Of a stretch of 64,000 nucleotides of DNA, positions 12,090 through 48,940 are shown one piece after another. Below the pieces are notes generated by a model. That model searched no databases. It saw nothing but the letters and a program-made list of their open reading frames with translations, and was not told where the DNA came from. The DNA lies in NCBI RefSeq assembly GCF_009931435.1, contig NZ_CP043414.1; one strand, given 5' to 3'. Position 1 is the stretch's first letter. Every line of letters starts with the position of its first letter. The stretch is from Escherichia coli. GTDB taxonomy: Bacteria; Pseudomonadota; Gammaproteobacteria; Enterobacterales; Enterobacteriaceae. A program made the translations under genes and the position numbers.

Positions 12090-12149
12090 ATAAACAATAA
12101 TGCTGTATGAAGTAATCTCAGCATTATTGTTTCCAATAATTAATGTTGG

Positions 12150-15282: not shown

Positions 15283-16764
15283 TTAGTGTTTCTTATGGCT
15301 CGGTGGACTCAGTTTTGGCGCGCTTCCTTGCCTCATGTGTTCTGGTGGCATTGAAGGTGTGAGATTTATGCTTCTATTAACTTCCGGCTGTTCCTGATTA
15401 GGACGGCTTGGTAAACGTTTGATTTCATCAGGTGTTAATTTATAGTCACCATTGTTAAATTTGGTACGTTTTTCAAACTCCGAGCGTGGAACATTGACAC
15501 CCAGCACTTCATCATAGACATAGTTCTCTGCGATACGCTTATCATGGTCAGCATCAATGGTATCGGGTTTCCTTCTGGCCCATACAAATCTCTCTTTGAA
15601 GAAGCCCACCACAAGCAGTGTGAAACGCTTAAACAAACCATTTTGTCGTGGCTTAGTCTGTTTCCTACTTCTCATCGGAGCACGGTTTATCGCTCTGGTG
15701 TTTCGAGAAGAAGGGGTTTCCAGTTTAGTGGATGCAGTTGGTTCAGGAACAATCAGAACGGGAGATTTCTTCCCTGAAATACTTACTTTACTGACCTTAT
15801 TAGGATTACGGTATGATTTTGCTGCTGGTCTTCTGCTTGTAGTTGCTGTTGCCACAATCGGCTGTTGTTCTACTGTTACCGGGTCGTCTGGAAGAACAAT
15901 CTCTTCGGGGTCAGGAAGAATTGTTATCTCAAAGCTTCTGACATCAACAACGATCTCCAGTGGTAGCTCACTGAATGTGGTGTAGACCTTCTTGGCCTCT
16001 TCAATTTGATGATCGCGTTGAGCTTGTTCAACAGATCGCTGTTCCTGAGACTCTTTGTCATTCCATTTAGCACGATGAACACGTTGCATTGCCGGGCGGT
16101 TAGTTTCCGTTGCTTTGGCAAGCCAGAACGCTTTTTCTTCAGCGCTGAATGCTTCTTCTGCCTGAGCAAGGGCATCAGCACATTGAGTTCTGAGAGAACG
16201 GTGATCGATACGTTCTTCACTGCCTGCAGTCTCAAGGTAGCTGTTTGACATCGTGGCCCATGACTCACGCCACTGAACAACCATCTTCTTATCATTCCAG
16301 CTTCTGTCTTTTTTACCGAAGCCTTCGGGACCGATAGTTTTCAGGGTTAACATGACGTGAGCATGGGGATTCTTACCATCTAAATCGTGGAATGCGATAT
16401 CAGCAATCATTCCTTTATCAGCAAAGTTCTTCTGGCAGTATTCGGCAACTAATTTTTTCTTGTCATCATTGCTGAGTTCTACGGGAATAGCGACATCAAA
16501 ATAACGGGCTGTTTGACCATTGTTCTGGCGTTCCACTCTTTCAACTTCATTCCAGAGTGCTGACGAGCTTTCAACAATATGAGCAGGTGCGGAAACAGGG
16601 GCTAATATAATATGACCATGAAGATCTGTTCTGTGGCTGAAATCAAATGTCTCGCCAATGCGATCATCTTTAATACGTGTACGGGCATGGTAGGCAGCTT
16701 TCGCAACAGAAGTCATGCCTTCGCTTCGTTTCACAATTTTAAAATCCAGATGAAAAATCGCCAT
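15283..16764 (-). CDS. mobA: MobA/MobL-family (MOBQ) conjugative relaxase
   Basis: N-terminus MAIFHLDFKIVKRS...AKAAYHAR with candidate catalytic Tyr; three-His motif HDLDGKNPHAHVML (H-x-D-x4-N-x-H-x-H). Confidence 0.85.
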   Translation of the reverse strand: MAIFHLDFKIVKRSEGMTSVAKAAYHARTRIKDDRIGETFDFSHRTDLHGHIILAPVSAPAHIVESSSALWNEVERVERQNNGQTARYFDVAIPVELSNDDKKKLVAEYCQKNFADKGMIADIAFHDLDGKNPHAHVMLTLKTIGPEGFGKKDRSWNDKKMVVQWRESWATMSNSYLETAGSEERIDHRSLRTQCADALAQAEEAFSAEEKAFWLAKATETNRPAMQRVHRAKWNDKESQEQRSVEQAQRDHQIEEAKKVYTTFSELPLEIVVDVRSFEITILPDPEEIVLPDDPVTVEQQPIVATATTSRRPAAKSYRNPNKVSKVSISGKKSPVLIVPEPTASTKLETPSSRNTRAINRAPMRSRKQTKPRQNGLFKRFTLLVVGFFKERFVWARRKPDTIDADHDKRIAENYVYDEVLGVNVPRSEFEKRTKFNNGDYKLTPDEIKRLPSRPNQEQPEVNRSINLTPSMPPEHMRQGSAPKLSPPSHKKH

Positions 16765-17409
16765 TAAAAATATAACCTCAAATAAAAGTAATGCTGTTAG
16801 TTTTTCGTAAGAAAAACTTCGGGGTTGACGTTGACCTTGGTTTTACTTTTAGCCTGCGGCAGCAACCGTCGGTAGACCCCACACACTGCGTAGCAGTGTA
16901 TAGGTGGGCATTGTCTTTAAGAAAATAAGCCAATGTAAAATGCCCCTCTTATTAATTAATACGAAATATATGTATGGTTGTAAAATAATACGCCGGAATA
17001 AGCGGCGCAAACTGGATTAAAGGTGTAGGTTTCACGTCCACAGAACAAAAAGAGTAAAGAAAAGGCCCGTAAGGGCAAAAGAAATATTAATTATTCCCGC
17101 CGTAAGGCGGGATAGCTAAATTTGATGGAAAAAAACCAATAAAACAGAGAGTGTTATGTGTTGCACAATTCACAGGTTGAGATTGGAAAATAGAGTTTAA
17201 AATTGACAGGTGAAAATAAAAGCACAAATGCGCAAAAATAAGTAACGCGGAGAGTGCCAGATGTTTTTGGTTAGTGAATACTATCATATGCGTTGCACAT
17301 ATTTATAAAGAAATGTATCAGAATCATTCTCTCTGACAAAACAGACTAAATTTGACGTTATTTATCTTTGTGATAATTAAAATAAGATATAATAATAGAA
17401 GGAGGTAGT
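16765..17409. other. Candidate oriT region between divergent relaxase and mobC-like genes
   Basis: Hairpin acactgc-gta-gcagtgt at 16883-16899; two GTAA(G)-loop hairpins (gccc-gtaa-gggc, cccgcc-gtaa-ggcggg) at 17064-17108; geometry mirrors RSF1010 mobC-oriT-mobA. Confidence 0.4.
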
Positions 17410-17715
17410 ATGGATAATGAAAGTAAAAGACCAAGAACAGAAAAAACATTAAAGCAAAAGGTTGCTTTTGCTCAGCTTGAACTTAATCGTCTTAAGTCTC
17501 TGGAAAAATCAGAGCGAAAGAAAGTTGAAACAAGACTCAAGATTATACTTGGTGCGGAAGTGGCTAAGGCTATGAATTGTAGTGTCGAACAGGTGGATAA
17601 AGAGCTTGTTATGGGGATTTTGCTTTCAGCATCTGACCTGAATGATATTGAAAAAATAACATATATAAAAGCAGGCAGTAAGTTTCTCGCGCAAATGGAG
17701 GGAAGACAAAAATAA
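17410..17715 (+). CDS. MobC-like relaxase accessory protein (putative)
   Basis: 101-aa charged coiled-coil protein transcribed divergently from the relaxase; assignment is by position and size only. Confidence 0.35.
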   Translation: MDNESKRPRTEKTLKQKVAFAQLELNRLKSLEKSERKKVETRLKIILGAEVAKAMNCSVEQVDKELVMGILLSASDLNDIEKITYIKAGSKFLAQMEGRQK

Positions 17716-17976
17716 TAATATTTAAATTTATTTTGATTCAGGTATTGATATCTGATTATTATCTGTTATCTATATAAAAGAACAGAACGCAGGATCATCC
17801 TTTATTAATATTTTTTCCTTTTCAATCATGCGTTCTGTTCGACCAGTAATCTGTTAATTTTTATCTTTATGTAGTGAACGTTATTATTACTTTTTTATCA
17901 GATATGATAAATATCCCATGAGGAAGTAATAATAACAGTAGTAGTGATAACAAATGTTGTTTTTAAATCTCCCGGA

Positions 17977-18002
17977 AGGCAAAGAGAAATCTTTGCCTTT
18001 TT
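17977..18002 (+). terminator. Rho-independent terminator (ggcaaaga-gaaa-tctttgcc + TTTTTT)
   Basis: Perfect 8-bp stem, tetraloop and U-tract, about 110 bp upstream of pilS. Confidence 0.6.
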
Positions 18003-18112
18003 TAATTCATCCGTCTGTCAGATAGAATTAAATATATCTTTCTATTTCTATTGCCAGATATGAGAGAAGCGTTATAACAGGAGTTATCATTAAAACAAAA
18101 AAGGAGATGATA

Positions 18113-18670
18113 ATGGTTTTATTAAATAACAAAAGAAAAGGCAAGAAAGGTTTCTCACTACTCGAGCTATTACTTGTTTTAGGCATCATTGCTGCATTAG
18201 TGGTAGCGGCTTTTATCGTTTATCCCAAGGTTCAGGCTTCACAAAGAGCACAGGCCGAATCCAATAACATTGCCACCATACAGGCAGGTGTTAAAGCGTT
18301 ATACACATCGGCTTCAAGTTTTACTGGCCTGACAAATACTGTGGCTGTTCAGGCAAAAATCTTCCCTGACAATATGTTAAGTGGGTCAGGAACGGCTGCT
18401 AAACCCATCAATGCCTTTAAAGGTAATGTGACGCTGGCTGCTACAGCTACAGGACCATCATCAGCGGCTGGCTCTTCTTTCACTATCACATACGATAATG
18501 TGCCAGCAGCGGAATGTGTGAAGATTGCGACAGCGGCAGCAGGTAATTTCTACATTACCACGGTTGGAACCAAGGTTGTTAAAGCCGCAAGAGGAACACT
18601 TGATGTGGCAGCTACGGCAGCGGCCTGTAATAACGCCACAAGTAATACATTAGTTTTCACGTCTATCTAA
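18113..18670 (+). CDS. pilS: Type IV prepilin, PilS-like major pilin (type IVb, IncI-thin-pilus-like)
   Basis: Long basic leader then G-FSLLELLLVLGIIA (prepilin peptidase motif with Glu+5); AAGGAG RBS 6 nt upstream of ATG 18113. Confidence 0.75.
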   Translation: MVLLNNKRKGKKGFSLLELLLVLGIIAALVVAAFIVYPKVQASQRAQAESNNIATIQAGVKALYTSASSFTGLTNTVAVQAKIFPDNMLSGSGTAAKPINAFKGNVTLAATATGPSSAAGSSFTITYDNVPAAECVKIATAAAGNFYITTVGTKVVKAARGTLDVAATAAACNNATSNTLVFTSI

Positions 18671-18722
18671 TGAAGAGGGCGCAGGCCCTTTTCTTTCTTA
18701 TTGCTAAAACAGGGAGATAATT

Positions 18723-20186
18723 ATGATAAAGAATAAAGGATTTACCTTACTGGAAGTCAGTATTGTGTTAGGCATTGGAACACTTATCGCTTTTATGAAG
18801 TTTCAGGATATGAGAAACAATCAGGAAGCGGTATTGGCTGATAATGTTGGAACACAGATTAAACAGCTTGGCGAAGCTGTTAACCGCTATATCAGTATTC
18901 GCTATGACAAGATTTCCACACTGTCATCATCCAACAATCAAAGTAGCGATCCGGGGCCAAGAACATGTTCGGCTGCTGGTTGTGAAATCACTTACCAGAC
19001 GTTAATTAATGAAGGTCTGTTGCCTGTCGGCTATACAGGAACTAACGCGCAAAAAGCATCTTACAAGATTGTGTTAAAGCGTTCAGGAACAGCGCCTGAT
19101 TACGTTATTAATGGTCTTATAACAACCGCTAGCCCGTGGGAAGAAGGTGGTCGTATTCGTTATGATCTATTAGGTAAAGCGGTTCAGGCGGCAGGTGTTG
19201 ATGGTGGTATGAGCAGAAACACCAAGATAGCTTCCGGCTATGGTGGTCAGTGGAGTGAGAACTCTAATAGCTACAGCAATATCACGGGTGGTGGATTGCT
19301 GGCTTACCGCGTGGGGTATAACTCTTCAATGTATTCTGTTTATCTGCGTCGTGATGGAACGTTGCCAATGACGGGTGATCTGAATCTTGGTGGGAAGAGC
19401 ATCAAAAACATCAAAGATATGACAGCATCAGGGACAACAACAACCGGAGCACTTAAGACAACGGGTAATGCGTCTGTTGCGTCAGATCTGAGTGTGGGTG
19501 GAACCTCGACCCTTAATGGTCCTGTAAATATCAACAACAACCTGAAAGTAAAATTTGATACCTATCTTAATACGCTATCAACAACAGGTCTGGCGAAGTT
19601 TGGTAGCCGTATTGCGACGAACGGACTTAATCCAAACGATCTGCCCGCTGGCTGGGCTGGCGGTGTTCGCACCTATGATTTGTATGCGTCGGGGACTGTT
19701 GGTGTTGGAACCGGTAAAACAGTTAAAGCTTACATGAACAATGCGGGTAATATTTATGCGTCAGGTAATCTTACCGCCGGGACGATAAAATCCAACGGAA
19801 CAATTGAATCAACAGGCAGAATCAAAGCAGGTGAATATCTCCACCTGAATGGTCAGGCAACGTTGAATGCGAAATGTACGCCTAATGGTTTGGTGGGACG
19901 AGACAGTACAGGTCGAGTGTTATCGTGTGTTAACGGTAAATGGCAGACAGCAAGTGGTGATGGCCTGAAAGGTATTTTTATAACGATAACAGATCAAATC
20001 TCTGGTTATAAATGCGTTATACCGAATAGTGATACTGGAACATGTGCCTGTCCGGGATCAACGTATAGTCCTCAGTTTGGTTATATATCTGGAACCCTTA
20101 TTGCAGAATATAATGAGGAGCGTTGTAGTGGTGGTAGGAATACACATTGTTATAGTAATTTCAGAAGGTTATATGCATGTCGGTAA
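18723..20186 (+). CDS. pilV: Type IV prepilin-like minor pilin/adhesin, PilV-like (487 aa)
   Basis: N-terminus MIKNKG-FTLLEVSIVLGIG (prepilin motif) followed by a large G/T/S-rich, Cys-containing domain. Confidence 0.7.
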   Translation: MIKNKGFTLLEVSIVLGIGTLIAFMKFQDMRNNQEAVLADNVGTQIKQLGEAVNRYISIRYDKISTLSSSNNQSSDPGPRTCSAAGCEITYQTLINEGLLPVGYTGTNAQKASYKIVLKRSGTAPDYVINGLITTASPWEEGGRIRYDLLGKAVQAAGVDGGMSRNTKIASGYGGQWSENSNSYSNITGGGLLAYRVGYNSSMYSVYLRRDGTLPMTGDLNLGGKSIKNIKDMTASGTTTTGALKTTGNASVASDLSVGGTSTLNGPVNINNNLKVKFDTYLNTLSTTGLAKFGSRIATNGLNPNDLPAGWAGGVRTYDLYASGTVGVGTGKTVKAYMNNAGNIYASGNLTAGTIKSNGTIESTGRIKAGEYLHLNGQATLNAKCTPNGLVGRDSTGRVLSCVNGKWQTASGDGLKGIFITITDQISGYKCVIPNSDTGTCACPGSTYSPQFGYISGTLIAEYNEERCSGGRNTHCYSNFRRLYACR

Positions 20187-20246: not shown

Positions 20247-21998
20247 TTATGAGGTTTGTAATAAAGAGAAGGCGTCATCCAATAGAATTTTCTCGCTATT
20301 GTTTATCTCTTTATTTAATAGAAATGATCTCACTGATTTTGCATTACCGATACAAATTTGTTTCGCTTTTCCTGCGAAATATTTCTTATTTATTTCATTG
20401 ATATCAAAAAGTGGATTGTCATTAATTTCGTTTTTTTTATATTCTGCTACGGTAAATAGCATTTGCTCATTATTACCAGATTCATTTCCTAAGAACTTAA
20501 AAATAAGATCTCTATTTCCAATATCTATATCTTCTTTGAATATAGCATCTAACAAAAATGGAAATTTATGGATTGTTTTTCTTTTATTGATTAATTTAAT
20601 AAAGGAAAAATGATAAGCCATGATTATTTTATGTAATTCAACCCCTTGGAAGGGGAAGGATGTAATGGAATAAAGATTTTGATACCTTGGATTATTAGGT
20701 ATTATTATCTTCAAAGCTTTTGCTTTTTCGCTGAAAATAGTTAAAAATTCCTTGTCAATGTTGTTTCGGAGAGAGTTAATTTGTGAATCTGTGAGTAGGT
20801 TGTCAATTTGGGTGTTAAGGTTTGATATTTTTTCGACATAATTAGCTTCTTTAATTTTAATATCATTTAAAATGGTGATATTTGCACGGTGATTAACCCA
20901 ATGGTCAAAGTCAATATTTTCGATTCTCGATTCTTTTAACACCTCATACTCAAGCTTTATTTTTTCACTATCGTGTTTGATCTTTCTTTCAACAGAATTT
21001 AATGATGACGAAACATTTTTAATTTCTTCAGTTATACGTTCTTTTTCTCGTAACGCATCGTTAATATCTTGAGTATAGATATATAATTGTCTAAGATCGC
21101 CGGGTAGCGTTTGTTCGCATACAGGACATGTGTCAACGCTGGGTTTTTGAAGTTTTAAATTTCGAATAGTTTGTAAAAGTACTTTTTGACGCCCACGTAA
21201 CATACTGAGTTTATTGCATAGTTTTTCATAATTAGCTTCTTCCGTAATCAGATTTTCTGCTAATATGTTGTATTTTTTTAAGTAATCAATTGCTTCCCCT
21301 TTGAATCGAGACTCTAATATCTCAGAGATTTTAAGAGAGCTATCTTTTGTTTTGTATTGAATTAATTGCTCTCTTTCATATTCAATTTGTTGTTTTTCTT
21401 TTTGCAACATATATTTTTGCAATCTGTCCGTACGATCTTTTATGCCTGCGTAGTAATCAAGGTAGTCATATTTGAAGTCTTTATAAAATCTATAATCACC
21501 TATTGATTCTCTTAGATAAACCCAACCAACAGATTGAGATATATAGAATGGCAAGAATGCAGCTTCTATCGGTGCATCAGTAAACTTAGTTTGGTTCTGT
21601 AATGTTAGATTAAAGTCAAATAAGTGGTTAAATAATTTTTTGTATCTTGCATATTCATATGAGTTATTTCCATTAATGCCATCAAACCGTAGGGGGACTC
21701 TATCATCAATGCGAACGACGAGAGTATCATCAAATCGAACAAATACAACCGTATGAGATGATTTTACTTTTATTATTTCACACTCAAGACGAAAGAGTAC
21801 TCTTTCTGTAAGAATGTCGTGCAAATTTTCTTTGGAATCATTAACACCCATTGTGTACAAAATTGATTGCATTAATGTACTTTTCCCTGATGTGTTCCTC
21901 CCGTGAATAATATTGACTGAGTCACCAAAATCAGTGCAAAAAAAACCTTTATTATTCATAGAGTATGCTAAAATGCTTTTCAGAATTAATTTAGACAT
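20247..21998 (-). CDS. SMC/Rad50-like ABC ATPase with coiled coil and CxxC hook (Lamassu LmuB-like)
   Basis: Walker A GRNTSGKST near N-terminus; long heptad-rich middle; CPVCEQ in mid-protein; start ATG 21998 with GAGGAA RBS overlaps upstream stop (ATGTCTAA). Confidence 0.65.
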   Translation of the reverse strand: MSKLILKSILAYSMNNKGFFCTDFGDSVNIIHGRNTSGKSTLMQSILYTMGVNDSKENLHDILTERVLFRLECEIIKVKSSHTVVFVRFDDTLVVRIDDRVPLRFDGINGNNSYEYARYKKLFNHLFDFNLTLQNQTKFTDAPIEAAFLPFYISQSVGWVYLRESIGDYRFYKDFKYDYLDYYAGIKDRTDRLQKYMLQKEKQQIEYEREQLIQYKTKDSSLKISEILESRFKGEAIDYLKKYNILAENLITEEANYEKLCNKLSMLRGRQKVLLQTIRNLKLQKPSVDTCPVCEQTLPGDLRQLYIYTQDINDALREKERITEEIKNVSSSLNSVERKIKHDSEKIKLEYEVLKESRIENIDFDHWVNHRANITILNDIKIKEANYVEKISNLNTQIDNLLTDSQINSLRNNIDKEFLTIFSEKAKALKIIIPNNPRYQNLYSITSFPFQGVELHKIIMAYHFSFIKLINKRKTIHKFPFLLDAIFKEDIDIGNRDLIFKFLGNESGNNEQMLFTVAEYKKNEINDNPLFDINEINKKYFAGKAKQICIGNAKSVRSFLLNKEINNSEKILLDDAFSLLQTS

Positions 21999-23079
21999 AC
22001 ATTCCTCTTGTCTCAACATATGCAGCTATTATCGCAAATGCAATCATGTGTTTTTCTAACCTTGAATTATATGTGTTAATATAAGTTTGATATAATTCAG
22101 TAATACAATCTGCTTCATCTGTATGTTTATAATCTATTTGTGTGTTTTCTGATACAAATTTATAAATCTTTTTGTATTCTACTTGTTGAAAATCTTTAAA
22201 AAAATCGAAACAGTTATCTAATAATTCTTGCGCTCTTCTTTTTATAGGGAGCTTAATTGATAATCCTTTCGCCAATTTATCTGCATGAGAACGCCAAAAG
22301 TTGAAAGCTTTTTTACTTTCTTGGAACATACTGAATGTTGCATCAATTTTTTGTTTGGTCAAACGCTTTGACCTATCTGTAAGTAAAGCATATCCAGCAT
22401 TATTATATGTTAACTCAACATCTTGCAATAAAGCCATTAGAGTTGTTATTACAGCGTCATGATCACTAACCTTACAACCTAGAACCTCAGTAGATAAACC
22501 TGTTAGCGTTCTTCTCCACCCTTTATAAGTTTGAGGAAGGTCAATGAAACTAAATTTTACATTAGAGAGTTGCTTAAAATCTGCAATTTCTCCATCTATT
22601 AGTTTTGATTGAATGTTTTCTTTGATTTCATCATGTAGATCAGAATAATTTTTAGAGATGTTTGTTACTTGTATTTTTTCTACTTTGCATTTTTTACCTT
22701 TTTCTTTCTTACCCTGAAGTATAATATTTCGATTTGTCAAGAAAGATAGAGTGTGTTTGTAATCATCAGATTTGGGGTGTTTATCGTTGATAAGTTCATT
22801 TCCAACAAGCGATATTTTTCCGATGATCTCACAAAATTTTTGATCCGTTTTCCAGTCATCTCTTGATTTTTTAGCTTGATAAGTATCAATGCGACTAATG
22901 TCACCATTTTCATCAACAAAGGCAAAAAGAAAATCTTCATGGTGTTCAACACATATAAAATAATCTAGCAATGGAGAGTTTAGTTTTTCGTAATCATCAA
23001 AAAGAAGGTATACAACACAACAACGTTGGAATGTATATCCTGAGCCTCCCTCAACTCCTGAGTTGACGCTTTCTGACAT
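21991..23079 (-). CDS. Mrr-like PD-(D/E)xK nuclease-domain protein (Lamassu LmuA-like effector, putative)
   Basis: N-terminal GYTFQ ... VEHHEDFLFAFVDENGD ... IDTYQAKK fits the Mrr-type G-x-x-FE / D / (Q/E)-x-K pattern; translationally coupled to the downstream ATPase. Confidence 0.5.
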   Translation of the reverse strand: MSESVNSGVEGGSGYTFQRCCVVYLLFDDYEKLNSPLLDYFICVEHHEDFLFAFVDENGDISRIDTYQAKKSRDDWKTDQKFCEIIGKISLVGNELINDKHPKSDDYKHTLSFLTNRNIILQGKKEKGKKCKVEKIQVTNISKNYSDLHDEIKENIQSKLIDGEIADFKQLSNVKFSFIDLPQTYKGWRRTLTGLSTEVLGCKVSDHDAVITTLMALLQDVELTYNNAGYALLTDRSKRLTKQKIDATFSMFQESKKAFNFWRSHADKLAKGLSIKLPIKRRAQELLDNCFDFFKDFQQVEYKKIYKFVSENTQIDYKHTDEADCITELYQTYINTYNSRLEKHMIAFAIIAAYVETRGMYV

Positions 23080-23624: not shown

Positions 23625-24854
23625 TCAAGCAGCCATAGCCCTATACTTTTGCGCCTTAACGTAATCTCCCCACCATTGCATAAGCACTTCTCGCTCCCCT
23701 AAATATTCAGCTCGATTGTAGGCTGCTATGATTTCAGTGCTTTTGGTATGGGCCAATGCTGCTTCAAGAACTTCTGTTCTGAATTTGCCACTCTCTTCGG
23801 CGGCTGTTCTGGCAATAGAACGCATACCATGAGCTACCAGTTCACCACCCAACCCCATACGAATCAATGCGGCGTTGGCTGTCTGCTCATGCATGTGGGC
23901 CAATGGTGTTTTTATGCTGGGAAATACCCATTCACGATGACCGCTGATAGGCTGCATGTTTTCCAGAATGCGAAGTGCCTCTTTGCTTAATGGCACTTTA
24001 TGAGGCCGTTTCATCTTCATAAACTCTGGTGGGATGTTCCAGATTTTATTCTCTGTATCGATGTCAGCCCAACGAGCACGAACAGCCTCACCGGGGCGAA
24101 CCCATGTCAGCAGTTGCCATTCAATCAGCATACGGGTTTCCAGACGGATGGATGCGTTTGCCAGTGCAATCATAAACCGGGGGATTTCGCTTGGTGGTAA
24201 TGCTGGCATATTTTGTTTTTTGGGCTTACTGAAACGTTGACCAAGGTTGTCGGCTGGGTTGAACTCAATGAGTTCTTCTGTGGCAGCATAGCGAAAAATT
24301 TCATTCAGGCGGGAAATGATGCGACGTAGAGTTTCAAGCACACCCCGTTGTTCAATTGGGTCGAGATGCTGCTTGAGCATTTTGGGGCGGATCTCTTTGA
24401 TAGGGACATCACCCAGAGTGGGAAAGATGTTCCGTTCAAGGCTACGCCAGATGTCTTCTGCATGATCTTGGGATATACCGGAAGTCTTAATCTTTTCATC
24501 CAACCACTTTCTTGCAACAGCCTGTAGCGTGTTTTCAGTCGCATCTTTTAGTGCATTGGCTTTTTCGTTGTTATGGACTTGAGGATCGATACCGTTGGCA
24601 AGTAGGGAGAGATACTCATCCCGCAAAGTTCGTGCCTTAGCCAAGGTAAGGTGAGGGTAGGTTCCAAGACTCATTTTTGTGCGTTTTTTGGTCACTGGCA
24701 CTGAATACCTGAAATACCAGTTTTTCTTCCCTCCTTTTGTGTCTGGCGCTATGCGTAGCAGTAATCCATCTCCATCAAAGAGGTTGATTTCCTTATCGCC
24801 GGGTTTGGTATTTTTGATTTCAGTATCAGTAAGTTTTTTTGCGAGCTTTGCCAT
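23625..24854 (-). CDS. intA: P4-type tyrosine integrase (IntA-like) adjacent to ssrA
   Basis: 409 aa; C-terminal catalytic region ...VAHGMRSIARTA...ALAHT...AAYNRAEY; sits directly downstream of the tmRNA 3' end as in CP4-57. Confidence 0.9.
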   Translation of the reverse strand: MAKLAKKLTDTEIKNTKPGDKEINLFDGDGLLLRIAPDTKGGKKNWYFRYSVPVTKKRTKMSLGTYPHLTLAKARTLRDEYLSLLANGIDPQVHNNEKANALKDATENTLQAVARKWLDEKIKTSGISQDHAEDIWRSLERNIFPTLGDVPIKEIRPKMLKQHLDPIEQRGVLETLRRIISRLNEIFRYAATEELIEFNPADNLGQRFSKPKKQNMPALPPSEIPRFMIALANASIRLETRMLIEWQLLTWVRPGEAVRARWADIDTENKIWNIPPEFMKMKRPHKVPLSKEALRILENMQPISGHREWVFPSIKTPLAHMHEQTANAALIRMGLGGELVAHGMRSIARTAAEESGKFRTEVLEAALAHTKSTEIIAAYNRAEYLGEREVLMQWWGDYVKAQKYRAMAA

Positions 24855-25018: not shown

Positions 25019-25381
25019 TGGTGGAGCTGGCGGGAGTTGAACCCGCGTCCGAAATTCCTACATCCTCGGTACTACATGCTTAGTCAGTCTTTACATTCGC
25101 TTGCCAGCTGCGGACGGACACGCCACTAACAAACTAGCCTGATTAAGTTTTAACGCTTCAACCCCAGGCAGGGCTTCCACGCGATCTCTTTTGGGTTTGA
25201 CCTCTCTTGATCCCCGTCCTAAGAGCGGAGGCTAGGGAGAGAGGGCTCTAAGCAGGTTATTAAGCTGCTAAAGCGTAGTTTTCGTCGTTTGCGACTATTT
25301 TTTGCGGCTTTTTACGAGGCCAACCGCCCCTCGGCATGCACCTTGGGTTTCGCAAATCCCGTCGAATCCAGAATCAGCCCC
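25019..25381 (-). ncRNA. ssrA: tmRNA (SsrA), 363 nt
   Basis: Reverse complement reads GGGGCUGAUUCUGGAUUCGACGGG ... GCAAACGACGAAAACUACGCUUUAGCAGCUUAA (tag reading frame) ... GGUUCAACUCCCGCCAGCUCCACCA. Confidence 0.97.
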
Positions 25382-26966: not shown

Positions 26967-27028
26967 CAGACGTTAAAAAAGGTGCTCATTGAGCACCTTT
27001 TTTAACGTCTTTGAGAGCAACTTTATTA

Positions 27029-43141: not shown

Positions 43142-43172
43142 ATAAAAAAGGCCCCCCGGTTTGGGAGGCCTT
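43142..43172 (-). terminator. pheL-pheA attenuator terminator
   Basis: GC hairpin plus U-tract (minus strand: ggcctcccaaaccggggggcc ttttttatt) between pheL and pheA. Confidence 0.8.
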
Positions 43173-43218
43173 ATTGTTCGTCTTCGCATTCTGTTTCACA
43201 CGACGAAACGCCTCCCAT

Positions 43219-43266
43219 TCAGGGGAAGGTAAAAAAGAATGCGAAGAAAAACGGCGTGTGTTTCAT
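43219..43266 (-). CDS. pheL: pheA leader peptide PheL (MKHTPFFFAFFFTFP)
   Basis: 15-codon ORF with seven Phe codons immediately upstream of the attenuator. Confidence 0.9.
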   Translation of the reverse strand: MKHTPFFFAFFFTFP

Positions 43267-43349
43267 GTTTGTTTCCTTAGGTGACTTCAGTACAGTACCC
43301 GTACTGTTTTCTCGCTGTCAACAAAAAACGCGCCCGAAGGTGCGTTGTA

Positions 43350-48623: not shown

Positions 48624-48741
48624 AGTATGCCGTTCTCACAAAAAAACCGCTTGCCATGCCGCAATCAGTCAGGTTACATTTCCGCTGCACCTCATAAAAC
48701 GGGTGCCGGGTTTCGCAGCCTGCTGACAACCAAAGCGCACA

Positions 48742-48761
48742 ACCGCGCCAGCGGTTTTTTT
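48742..48761 (+). terminator. Rho-independent terminator (accgc-gcca-gcggt + T7) in a non-coding gap
   Basis: Stem, tetraloop and U-tract; flanked by cgcaca/tgtgcg outer complement. Confidence 0.55.
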
Positions 48762-48802
48762 GTGCGTACTGTATTGCCACGTCTTTTTCGCACACGAATT
48801 AT

Positions 48803-48878
48803 GGCGGGGCGTACGGGGCCGACTTCGGTCGGGCCGGGTTCTTTGGTTGCCGGTACTGCGAACCCCGTACGTCTCGCC
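48803..48878 (+). ncRNA. Candidate structured RNA: 16-bp stem (14 Watson-Crick + 2 G-U on the plus-strand transcript) enclosing a UUCG-tetraloop hairpin
   Basis: ggcggggcgtacgggg pairs with ccccgtacgtctcgcc; inner ccgac-TTCG-gtcgg; the two G-U pairs would be C-A mismatches on the opposite strand. Confidence 0.35.
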
Positions 48879-48940
48879 ACCCACAGTTTCGCAGCTCTGG
48901 ATGGTGAGTTTTCAAAACTTACAACCAAAGAGGCTACACC

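Follow-up and report, generated by a model that had tools for sequence, protein, structure and literature searches.

A conserved array of hairpins ending in an intrinsic terminator between traD and pilS of a mobilizable genomic island in Escherichia coli

The stretch of DNA analyzed here, which we call the window, comprises 64,000 nucleotides of Escherichia coli (RefSeq assembly GCF_009931435.1, contig NZ_CP043414.1), and all positions given below refer to it. It is chromosomal, and its pheA-aroF region matches a sequenced strain at 100% identity. A mobilizable genomic island of the Enterobacteriaceae-associated ROD21-like (EARL) type occupies positions ~700-25000, where it is inserted at ssrA of the chromosome. 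Within this island a traD-like gene is followed by pilS, which codes for a type IVb major pilin, and the intergenic region between the two genes holds an inverted repeat and a terminator on which an earlier note had commented. We describe how the + strand of this region folds into three consecutive hairpins, designated HP1 (17780-17840), HP2 (17880-17936) and the terminator (17974-18003), and discuss what such a conserved array may do. No feature is annotated in the traD-pilS intergenic region in the RefSeq records of homologues, and the EARL literature makes no mention of it and refers to the origin of transfer (oriT) of ROD21 as unidentified. The features from traD to pilS are as follows (PWM, position weight matrix; UTR, untranslated region; SD, Shine-Dalgarno sequence):

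17410-17715, + strand: traD-like gene, a small Ti-type TraD of 101 aa (Pfam PF06412 TraD, E 1e-10)
17716-17742, + strand: variable spacer after the traD stop, with the highest column entropy and an identity of 0.59-0.96, like that of third codon positions
17743-17779, + strand: conserved block GTTGATATCT.ATTA.TATCTGTTATCTATATAAAAG, of low entropy and with an identity of 0.73-1.00
17780-17840, + strand: HP1, a 12-bp perfect stem with a conserved U-rich loop of 37 nt (RNA fold -19.4 kcal/mol, z -5.3)
17839-17844 and 17862-17867, + strand: candidate internal promoter P2 from the PWM, with -35 TCGACC, a 17-nt spacer and -10 TATCTT
17880-17936, + strand: HP2, a 57-nt hairpin of 9 + 9 + 5 pairs (fold and covariation)
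17937-17973, + strand: conserved linker AGUAGUAGUGAUAACAAAUGUUGUUUUUAAAUCUCCC, predicted to be unpaired
17974-18003, + strand: intrinsic terminator, with stem AAGGCAAAGA (17976-17985), loop GAAA and stem TCTTTGCCTT (17990-17999), then TTTT
18051-18056 and 18073-18078, + strand: candidate pilS promoter, TTGCCA and TATAAC with a 16-nt spacer, in the same columns in 17 of 19 sequences
18085 to the start codon, + strand: pilS 5'UTR, nearly invariant (entropy 0.08-0.14), with SD AGGAG at 18101-18105
ATG at 18113 or 18107, to 18670, + strand: pilS coding region, type IVb major pilin (PilS PF08805, E 1.4e-28; PGAP starts in homologues)

Hairpins and terminator of the intergenic region

The repeat is present in the sequence as the earlier note had reported it, with GAACAGAACGCA at 17780-17791 and its exact reverse complement TGCGTTCTGTTC at 17829-17840 separated by 37 bp, and the arms lengthen to 16 nt when one mismatch is allowed (17780-17795 and 17825-17840). 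Shuffled windows contain on average 0.33 perfect 12-bp inverted repeats with a spacer of 3-60 bp (sd 0.73), a figure that is 0.14 for the AT-rich part of the island. The repeat is not a chance feature, because it is kept in 46 distinct homologous sequences. A search for copies elsewhere, which the earlier note had suggested, was carried through within the 64-kb window and found no other match to the arm with one mismatch or fewer; at two mismatches there are 11 matches versus 6.0±2.3 expected.

The earlier note missed another perfect inverted repeat, with arms of 13 bp (17880-17892 and 17924-17936), which grows into the 57-nt hairpin HP2. The folding energy of HP2 is -23.3 kcal/mol (z -8.7) on the + strand versus -18.4 on the - strand, and its covarying upper stem is not formed when DNA parameters are used.

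The third hairpin had been placed by the earlier note at 17977-18002 and called a terminator, which is essentially right, as a stem-loop with a T-run lies at 17974-18003. When two G·U pairs are counted, its stem starts at 17974 and comprises 12 pairs (-15.6 kcal/mol, z -4.8), and a run of six T extends over 17998-18003, the first two bases of which are paired in the stem, with no T-run on the - side. Both of the properties by which intrinsic terminators are recognized are therefore found here, namely a stable stem-loop with G+C pairs and a U-tract directly 3' of it on the transcribed strand. A terminator consensus scan of the window did not list the hairpin at 17974-18003, probably because the G·T-extended stem uses up part of the T-run. 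There is no other terminator-like site on the + strand between traD and 18003, with both HP1 and HP2 lacking U-tracts behind them. This hairpin is thus the first terminator after traD and consequently the terminator of traD, with every traD mRNA predicted to carry a structured tail of ~290 nt. Pairing probabilities do not fall below 0.98 for any of the three hairpins in five transcript contexts, which extend from the complete traD mRNA to a transcript that continues into pilS, and in the consensus fold there is no competitor for the terminator arms.

Among 12 loci that were compared, the linker that joins HP2 to the terminator has an identity of 0.89-1.00 in eight, six of which reach 1.00, and of 0.57-0.81 in the remaining four; the entropy of 17948-17975 is 0.19-0.37. 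A U-rich tract (UGUUGUUUUUAAAUCUCCC) is located directly 5' of the terminator hairpin, which is then followed by UUUUUU. A U-rich tract, a terminator hairpin and a U6 tail constitute the arrangement of an Hfq-binding module, and it is possible, as judged from sequence, that 17937-17973 forms such a module or else a seed.

One natural deletion affects this part of the element. In E. coli PAR (NZ_CP012379.1; locus L054) a segment equivalent to window positions 17867-17985 is missing, so that HP2 and the left half of the terminator are gone and HP1 and the promoter region of pilS remain; the pilin gene that follows in this locus is annotated as abnormally long.

Conservation, covariation and strand polarity

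Homologues were gathered via TraD proteins, via annotated records and via a metagenome scan anchored on the pilS leader. The 46 distinct sequences obtained in this way belong to islands of E. coli, Salmonella and Klebsiella, with identities as low as 73%. The metagenome scan provided 34 useful near-E. coli variants that were aligned and two more that are cut at a contig end, with its remaining matches being either chance matches outside the family or too truncated for use. Of 5426 complete E. coli genomes, 525 carry the 397-bp traD-pilS spacer, 498 of them at 95-99% identity, and the 2.1-kb neighbourhood is mostly 90-95% identical. The element is also present in the Salmonella and Klebsiella islands, and it is absent from plasmid and phage collections except for one 393-kb E. 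coli replicon. Of the distant TraD loci of the genome scan, most have neither pilS nor the element. A scan of the region with Rfam 15 returned no family at the gathering score and, at E values up to 10, only chance-level matches (E of at least 0.3, to eukaryotic microRNA models and the like). Additionally, a covariance model built from HP2 and the terminator (model R1) scores 159 bits on the + strand and 33 bits on the - strand, and a search with it over 26 sources returned the window copy only, with no diverged copies in the distant TraD loci.

A distant clade of traD-pilS loci, represented by L013:3791-4131 from Pluralibacter gergoviae and L018:3000-3336, has a spacer that is not alignable with that of the window. 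These spacers fold into several hairpins (z about -4.3) and have a terminator of their own, GACCGAGAGTGAACTCGGTCTTTTT. They may represent an analogue of the element, two sequences being too few for a test.

Identity to the window is 0.56-0.89 at the third codon positions of traD and pilS, compared with values that are typically 0.84-1.00 for segments of the element. Only the 27 bp directly after the traD stop behave like neutral sequence, so that 17716-17742 appears to evolve roughly neutrally. The element itself, as its sequence conservation indicates, is under purifying selection, to which picture mosaic recombination could contribute.

The predicted pairs are supported by how the sequences vary. 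In an alignment of 19 sequences (alignment A3) 95.5% of pair cells hold standard pairs, versus 44-54% when the partners are slid by 1-3 columns, and 8 pairs are changed on both sides, a number that none of 500 shuffles attained (3.6±1.3 such pairs per shuffle). In the same 19 sequences the proportion of paired cells is 93.9% for HP1, 95.9% for HP2 and 96.5% for the terminator. In HP2 both partners have changed in 7 of 22 pairs, for example AUUAC/GUAAU to AUCAC/GUGAU and GUU/AAC to GUC/GAC to GCU/AGC, and on this sequence evidence it is the best-supported RNA structure of the element.

Tolerance of G·U in the three helices is confined almost entirely to the + strand, which is the sense of traD and pilS. 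Across the 46 sequences, the cells that are compatible with G·U on one strand only number 146 on + versus 12 on - for HP2, 73 versus 2 for the terminator and 33 versus 5 for HP1. In HP1 the frequent G·U variants, found in 15, 9 and 6 sequences, are all + compatible, and those compatible with the - strand are rare (2, 2 and 1). The length of the HP1 loop, or spacing of its arms, also varies from 36 to 45 nt. From this polarity it follows that the selected object is a + sense single strand, and most simply an RNA in the sense of traD and pilS. We are accordingly rather confident that the element is a structured RNA of the sense strand together with the terminator of traD. The earlier note had supposed that a short transcript or regulatory element may precede the pilS promoter. 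This was a fair supposition, given conservation above that of synonymous sites, covariation and strand-specific G·U, and both a regulatory element and a short transcript are plausible.

Promoters, the favoured reading and its rivals

The hexamers of the candidate pilS promoter vary at 0 of 12 positions versus 10 of 28 neighbouring positions (p=0.015), and in the Klebsiella variants, where the spacer between them has diverged, the TTG and TATA.C positions are kept. Because these hexamers are invariant while their surroundings vary, pilS is very likely transcribed from a promoter of its own located 3' of the terminator, insofar as a promoter can be recognized from sequence. A perfect 8-bp palindrome, GTTATAAC, at 18070-18078 (+ strand) overlaps the predicted -10 of this promoter; a related hexamer, GTTATC/GATAAC, occurs again at 17764, 17946 and 18083.

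The candidate internal promoter P2 has a predicted start at ~17873-17874, just 5' of HP2, from which a product of ~130 nt would result. P2 is the top sigma-70-like PWM site of the + strand in 15 of 19 sequences, and 11 of 38 variants have TTGACC as its -35 hexamer. One clade carries a 6-nt deletion by which TATCTT is replaced with TATGTT at unchanged spacing, and in more distant variants the same columns read T(G/T)CACA-16-TATTTT. Promoter PWM scores are by themselves not significant.

We lean towards a reading, and hold it to be somewhat more probable than its negation, in which the element is a structured 3'UTR of traD that ends at the traD terminator, insulates pilS, which has a separate promoter, and probably gives rise to a small regulatory RNA. 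Transcripts of traD would carry this 3'UTR and stop at the terminator, which would thereby insulate pilS, with pilS transcription starting from its own promoter 50-75 bp further downstream. A small RNA could be produced in two ways, either as a ~130-nt RNA from P2 that consists of HP2, the single-stranded U-rich linker and the terminator, or as a ~225-nt RNA that would arise via processing at the base of HP1. The action of this small RNA would be post-transcriptional and directed at island transfer and pilin functions or at a helper element. Regulation in trans by an RNA of this element is a tentative part of this reading that we regard as rather doubtful, and that the element encodes a trans-acting RNA required for horizontal transfer of the island is more improbable still. 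An RNA of the latter kind might couple the island genes pilS and pilV, which are present without assembly genes, to the type IVb pilus or transfer genes of a helper plasmid.

A number of observations weigh against this reading. HP1 has only one pair with a compensatory series (C-G > U·G > U-A) and is otherwise mostly conserved in sequence, and for this reason the case for its RNA nature rests on the G·U asymmetry (5 versus 3 sites) and on the variable loop length. The P2 hexamers vary at 1 of 12 positions versus 9 of 29 elsewhere, which is only suggestive (p=0.125), and the PWM score of P2 is equalled in 24% of shuffles. A further promoter candidate, P1 (in the block 17743-17779, upstream of HP1), is not supported, its hexamers being no better conserved than their surroundings (p=0.74); an RNA containing HP1 would therefore have to come from traD read-through, possibly after processing. 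Mosaic recombination could inflate the intergenic identity relative to that of the flanking genes. Among the entries listed for Hfq RIL-seq (RNA interaction by ligation and sequencing) in enteropathogenic E. coli (EPEC), no chimera names E2348C_2108 or E2348C_2109, the traD and pilS genes of strain E2348/69. Similarly, among the entries listed from a 3'-end mapping study there is none at the traD-pilS locus; the island may be silent in culture. Finally, prediction of targets by duplex energy against the 131 translation-initiation regions of the window did not single out any island gene.

Several other candidates were examined by eye and set aside. Complementarities between the HP1 loop and the pilS SD, between 17755-17764 and the start region of pilS, and between 17942-17958 and 18076-18092 are of low complexity, uncompensated or invariant; GGA motifs for CsrA are not conserved; a miniature inverted-repeat transposable element or other dispersed repeat does not fit with one copy per genome and no target-site duplication; and small open reading frames in the element have their frame broken by indels.

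A separate block at ~16850-16915 (+ strand), beside the relaxase gene, bears on whether the repeat serves in DNA transfer. Conservation of this block extends to loci with a TraD that has just 39-64% identity to that of the window, and in alignment A5 its repeat ACACTGC-GTA-GCAGTGT covaries (CACTGC/GCAGTG, CGCTCAC/GTGAGTG, CATTGC/GCAATG) and the sequence GTATAGGTGGGCATTG located 3' of the repeat is invariant across genera. We take the invariant block to resemble the nick region of R1162. Judged on these features, ~16850-16915 is likely the MOBQ-type oriT of the island, which by analogy suggests that the + strand is the transferred strand. The repeat at 17780-17840 was rejected as oriT since this other site carries both a covarying repeat and an invariant nick-like block. 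HP1 does resemble the MOBQ oriT of R1162/RSF1010 in being an inverted repeat in the transfer module of an element with a MobA/MobL relaxase, but it has a 37-nt loop, lies 3' of traD and shows no nick-like flank common to distant relatives.

A rival reading takes the element to be a passive 3' end, where hairpins and terminator end and stabilize the traD mRNA and insulate pilS with neither a discrete small RNA nor any regulation. The position of the terminator as the first after traD agrees with this, as does the lack of an identified target, of an Hfq chimera among the EPEC entries listed and of strong support for an internal promoter. However, it is the loop and linker sequences, and not the stems alone, that are conserved well above third-codon identity, and a 12-bp stem with a conserved 37-nt loop followed by a 57-nt covarying hairpin exceeds what protection of an mRNA needs, so that we assign to a passive end a minor share of the probability. 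The earlier note had raised repressor binding, by which the repeat would be a pair of operator half-sites on double-stranded DNA that regulates P2 or, indirectly, pilS. The arms are indeed perfect and are conserved mostly in sequence with a single compensatory pair, the -35 of P2 shares bases with the right arm, and the common change C17840T keeps a G·T pair while bettering this -35 to TTGACC. Yet the arms are 36-45 bp apart among the 46 variants, which breaks helical phasing and departs from the fixed spacing of half-sites, their centre-to-centre distance of ~49 bp is atypical for a dimer, the window holds no further near-identical arm, the frequent variants are G·U-compatible on the + strand only, and P2 is itself unproven. 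An RNA stem is thus favoured over a DNA operator, with the two roles not being mutually exclusive, and binding of a repressor is disfavoured and in our estimate improbable.

Control of pilin expression by termination and antitermination, also proposed in the earlier note, is not borne out. If it were an attenuator, the element would belong to a leader that starts upstream of the repeat, transcription would continue into pilS whenever the terminator failed to form, and the repeat would be a component of an antiterminator switch. The terminator does lie 110 nt upstream of pilS, and RNAalifold proposes long-range pairs between 17942-17958 and 18076-18092 around it, but these pairs never vary and so provide no test by covariation. 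Since no alternative fold competes with the terminator, whose pairing probability is 0.98-0.99 in all contexts, attenuation of pilS is not supported; in addition, HP1 is separated from the terminator by 135 nt that include HP2, a hairpin stable on its own, the terminator belongs to traD, and the conserved promoter-like hexamers predicted for pilS are 3' of it. We consider attenuation very unlikely. It is slightly less likely again that the hairpins act on single-stranded DNA during conjugation, serving in the leading region for priming or as an ssi-like signal. If the likely oriT at ~16850-16915 is used on the + strand, then by analogy traD and the element would enter the recipient first, and tolerance of G·T on the + strand fits single-stranded DNA as well. 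Against such a signal stand the failure of the HP2 upper stem to form with DNA parameters, the exact form and position of an intrinsic terminator that the third hairpin has, stems that by eye are too short for a hairpin promoter, and the location of the inverted repeat with a conserved nick region at another site. We thus retain the structured traD 3'UTR, with a probable small RNA, as the favoured reading.

Island context, known systems and significance

Other genes of the transfer and integration modules in the island, and the RNA gene at its end, are:

15283-16764, - strand: MobA/MobL relaxase (Pfam match)
18723-20186: PilV (Pfam match)
23625-24854, - strand: P4-type integrase (Pfam match)
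25019-25381: tmRNA (ssrA), adjoining the island integrase (Rfam scan)

By Pfam, the island contains the EARL gene set of a P4-like integrase, a MobA/MobL relaxase, a TraD homologue, a type IV pilin and a pilus-related gene, which form the conserved backbone of the family as defined in PMC6035254. Relatives of the TraD protein carry the label "conjugal transfer protein TraD" in E. coli records, and the islands of E2348/69 and of other E. coli share the gene order seen here. In E2348/69 the element aligns to ~2162618-2162841 of NC_011601.1. The EARL definition includes an Asn-tRNA gene as the site of integration, which is not found here as the integrase abuts the tmRNA gene; the E2348/69 copy is at tRNA-Asn. 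The same island backbone is therefore seen at ssrA in the window versus Asn-tRNA genes in E2348/69 and the published EARL islands.

Many related islands have an open reading frame of 113-121 aa that overlaps the start of traD (for example L033:2139-2504, L052:2632-2997 and L055:838-1188); both the window and E2348/69 lack this frame or have it in degenerate form. Directly 3' of pilS and 5' of pilV there is a terminator-like hairpin at 18672-18693 (+ strand), and this may be a partial terminator that sets the ratio of major pilin to adhesin. A Lamassu anti-phage system is located on the - strand between pilV and the integrase gene (LmuB 20247-22019, E 1.8e-224; LmuA 21991-23079, E 2.1e-137). 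Island cargo at 735-5396 (+ strand) codes for a 1553-aa AIDA-type autotransporter adhesin with AIDA repeats, a pertactin domain and a beta-domain, and a RepL-like gene is present at 7754-8311 (- strand). Other long perfect inverted repeats of the window, at 12092-12132 (14-bp arms) and 26968-27010 (20-bp arms), are at gene ends and have the look of ordinary terminators. Rfam matches outside the island are a Phe leader at 43142-43267 (- strand), the small RNA isrK at 48687-48761 (+ strand) and C4 antisense RNA at 48797-48884 (+ strand), the latter two being neighbours of each other as in P4-like or prophage regions.

The element has features in common with several known systems. A canonical Rho-independent terminator fits the third hairpin, with its G+C-containing stem, tetraloop, U6 and position 3' of a gene, but explains 17974-18003 only and not the conserved 200 nt before it. 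CpxQ, SroC, DapZ and MicL are Hfq-dependent small RNAs derived from 3'UTRs that arise by processing or from an internal promoter. The element is similar to these in its use of the terminator of a parental gene, in the U-rich tract before the hairpin, in the poly-U tail and in having a conserved single-stranded segment, but it is longer and more structured with its 57-nt hairpin, which places it nearer to ligands of the ProQ/FinO type than to typical Hfq-dependent small RNAs. FinP (Rfam RF00107), the antisense RNA of F-like plasmids that is antisense to the leader of its target and works with FinO, is likewise a highly structured stem-loop RNA with a terminator on a mobile element and controls conjugation genes. 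In contrast to FinP, it is the sense strand that is selected here, there is no overlapping antisense target, and none of the Rfam matches, even at E up to 10, is above chance level. With respect to function and position only, the closest likeness is to sgm-sRNA of Salmonella Genomic Island 1 (SGI1), a small RNA that comes from the 3' end of a longer primary transcript or mRNA in the mobilization module and is essential for transfer (PMC9299015). Like sgm-sRNA, the putative RNA of the element would be non-coding, derive from a 3' end and be encoded near oriT in the mobilization module of an integrative mobilizable element, and it is unannotated by standard pipelines. The two differ in that SGI1 belongs to another island family with a "relaxase" of the tyrosine recombinase type, and in that sgm-sRNA was shown experimentally to be essential whereas the present element is known from sequence alone.

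About one in ten complete E. coli genomes carries an EARL/ROD21-like island, and such islands also occur in Salmonella Enteritidis, where ROD21 is linked to virulence, and in the ST258 lineage of Klebsiella (ICEKp258.2); strains that carry one include E. coli E2348/69 and Nissle 1917 and S. Enteritidis P125109. The traD-pilS element is unannotated and may give rise to a small RNA that has not been described before, with the class to which such an RNA would belong being already known. Should the element be no more than a long structured 3'UTR with a terminator, it would be ordinary and would still correct the idea that the terminator attenuates pilS. An unannotated and strongly selected RNA module located between the mobilization and pilin genes provides a handle on how transfer and the orphan pilS and pilV genes of these islands are regulated. 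If a trans-acting RNA from this module does prove to be needed for transfer, this RNA would be the device by which the island family hijacks its helper and would constitute a second, unrelated case beside that of sgm-sRNA in SGI1.

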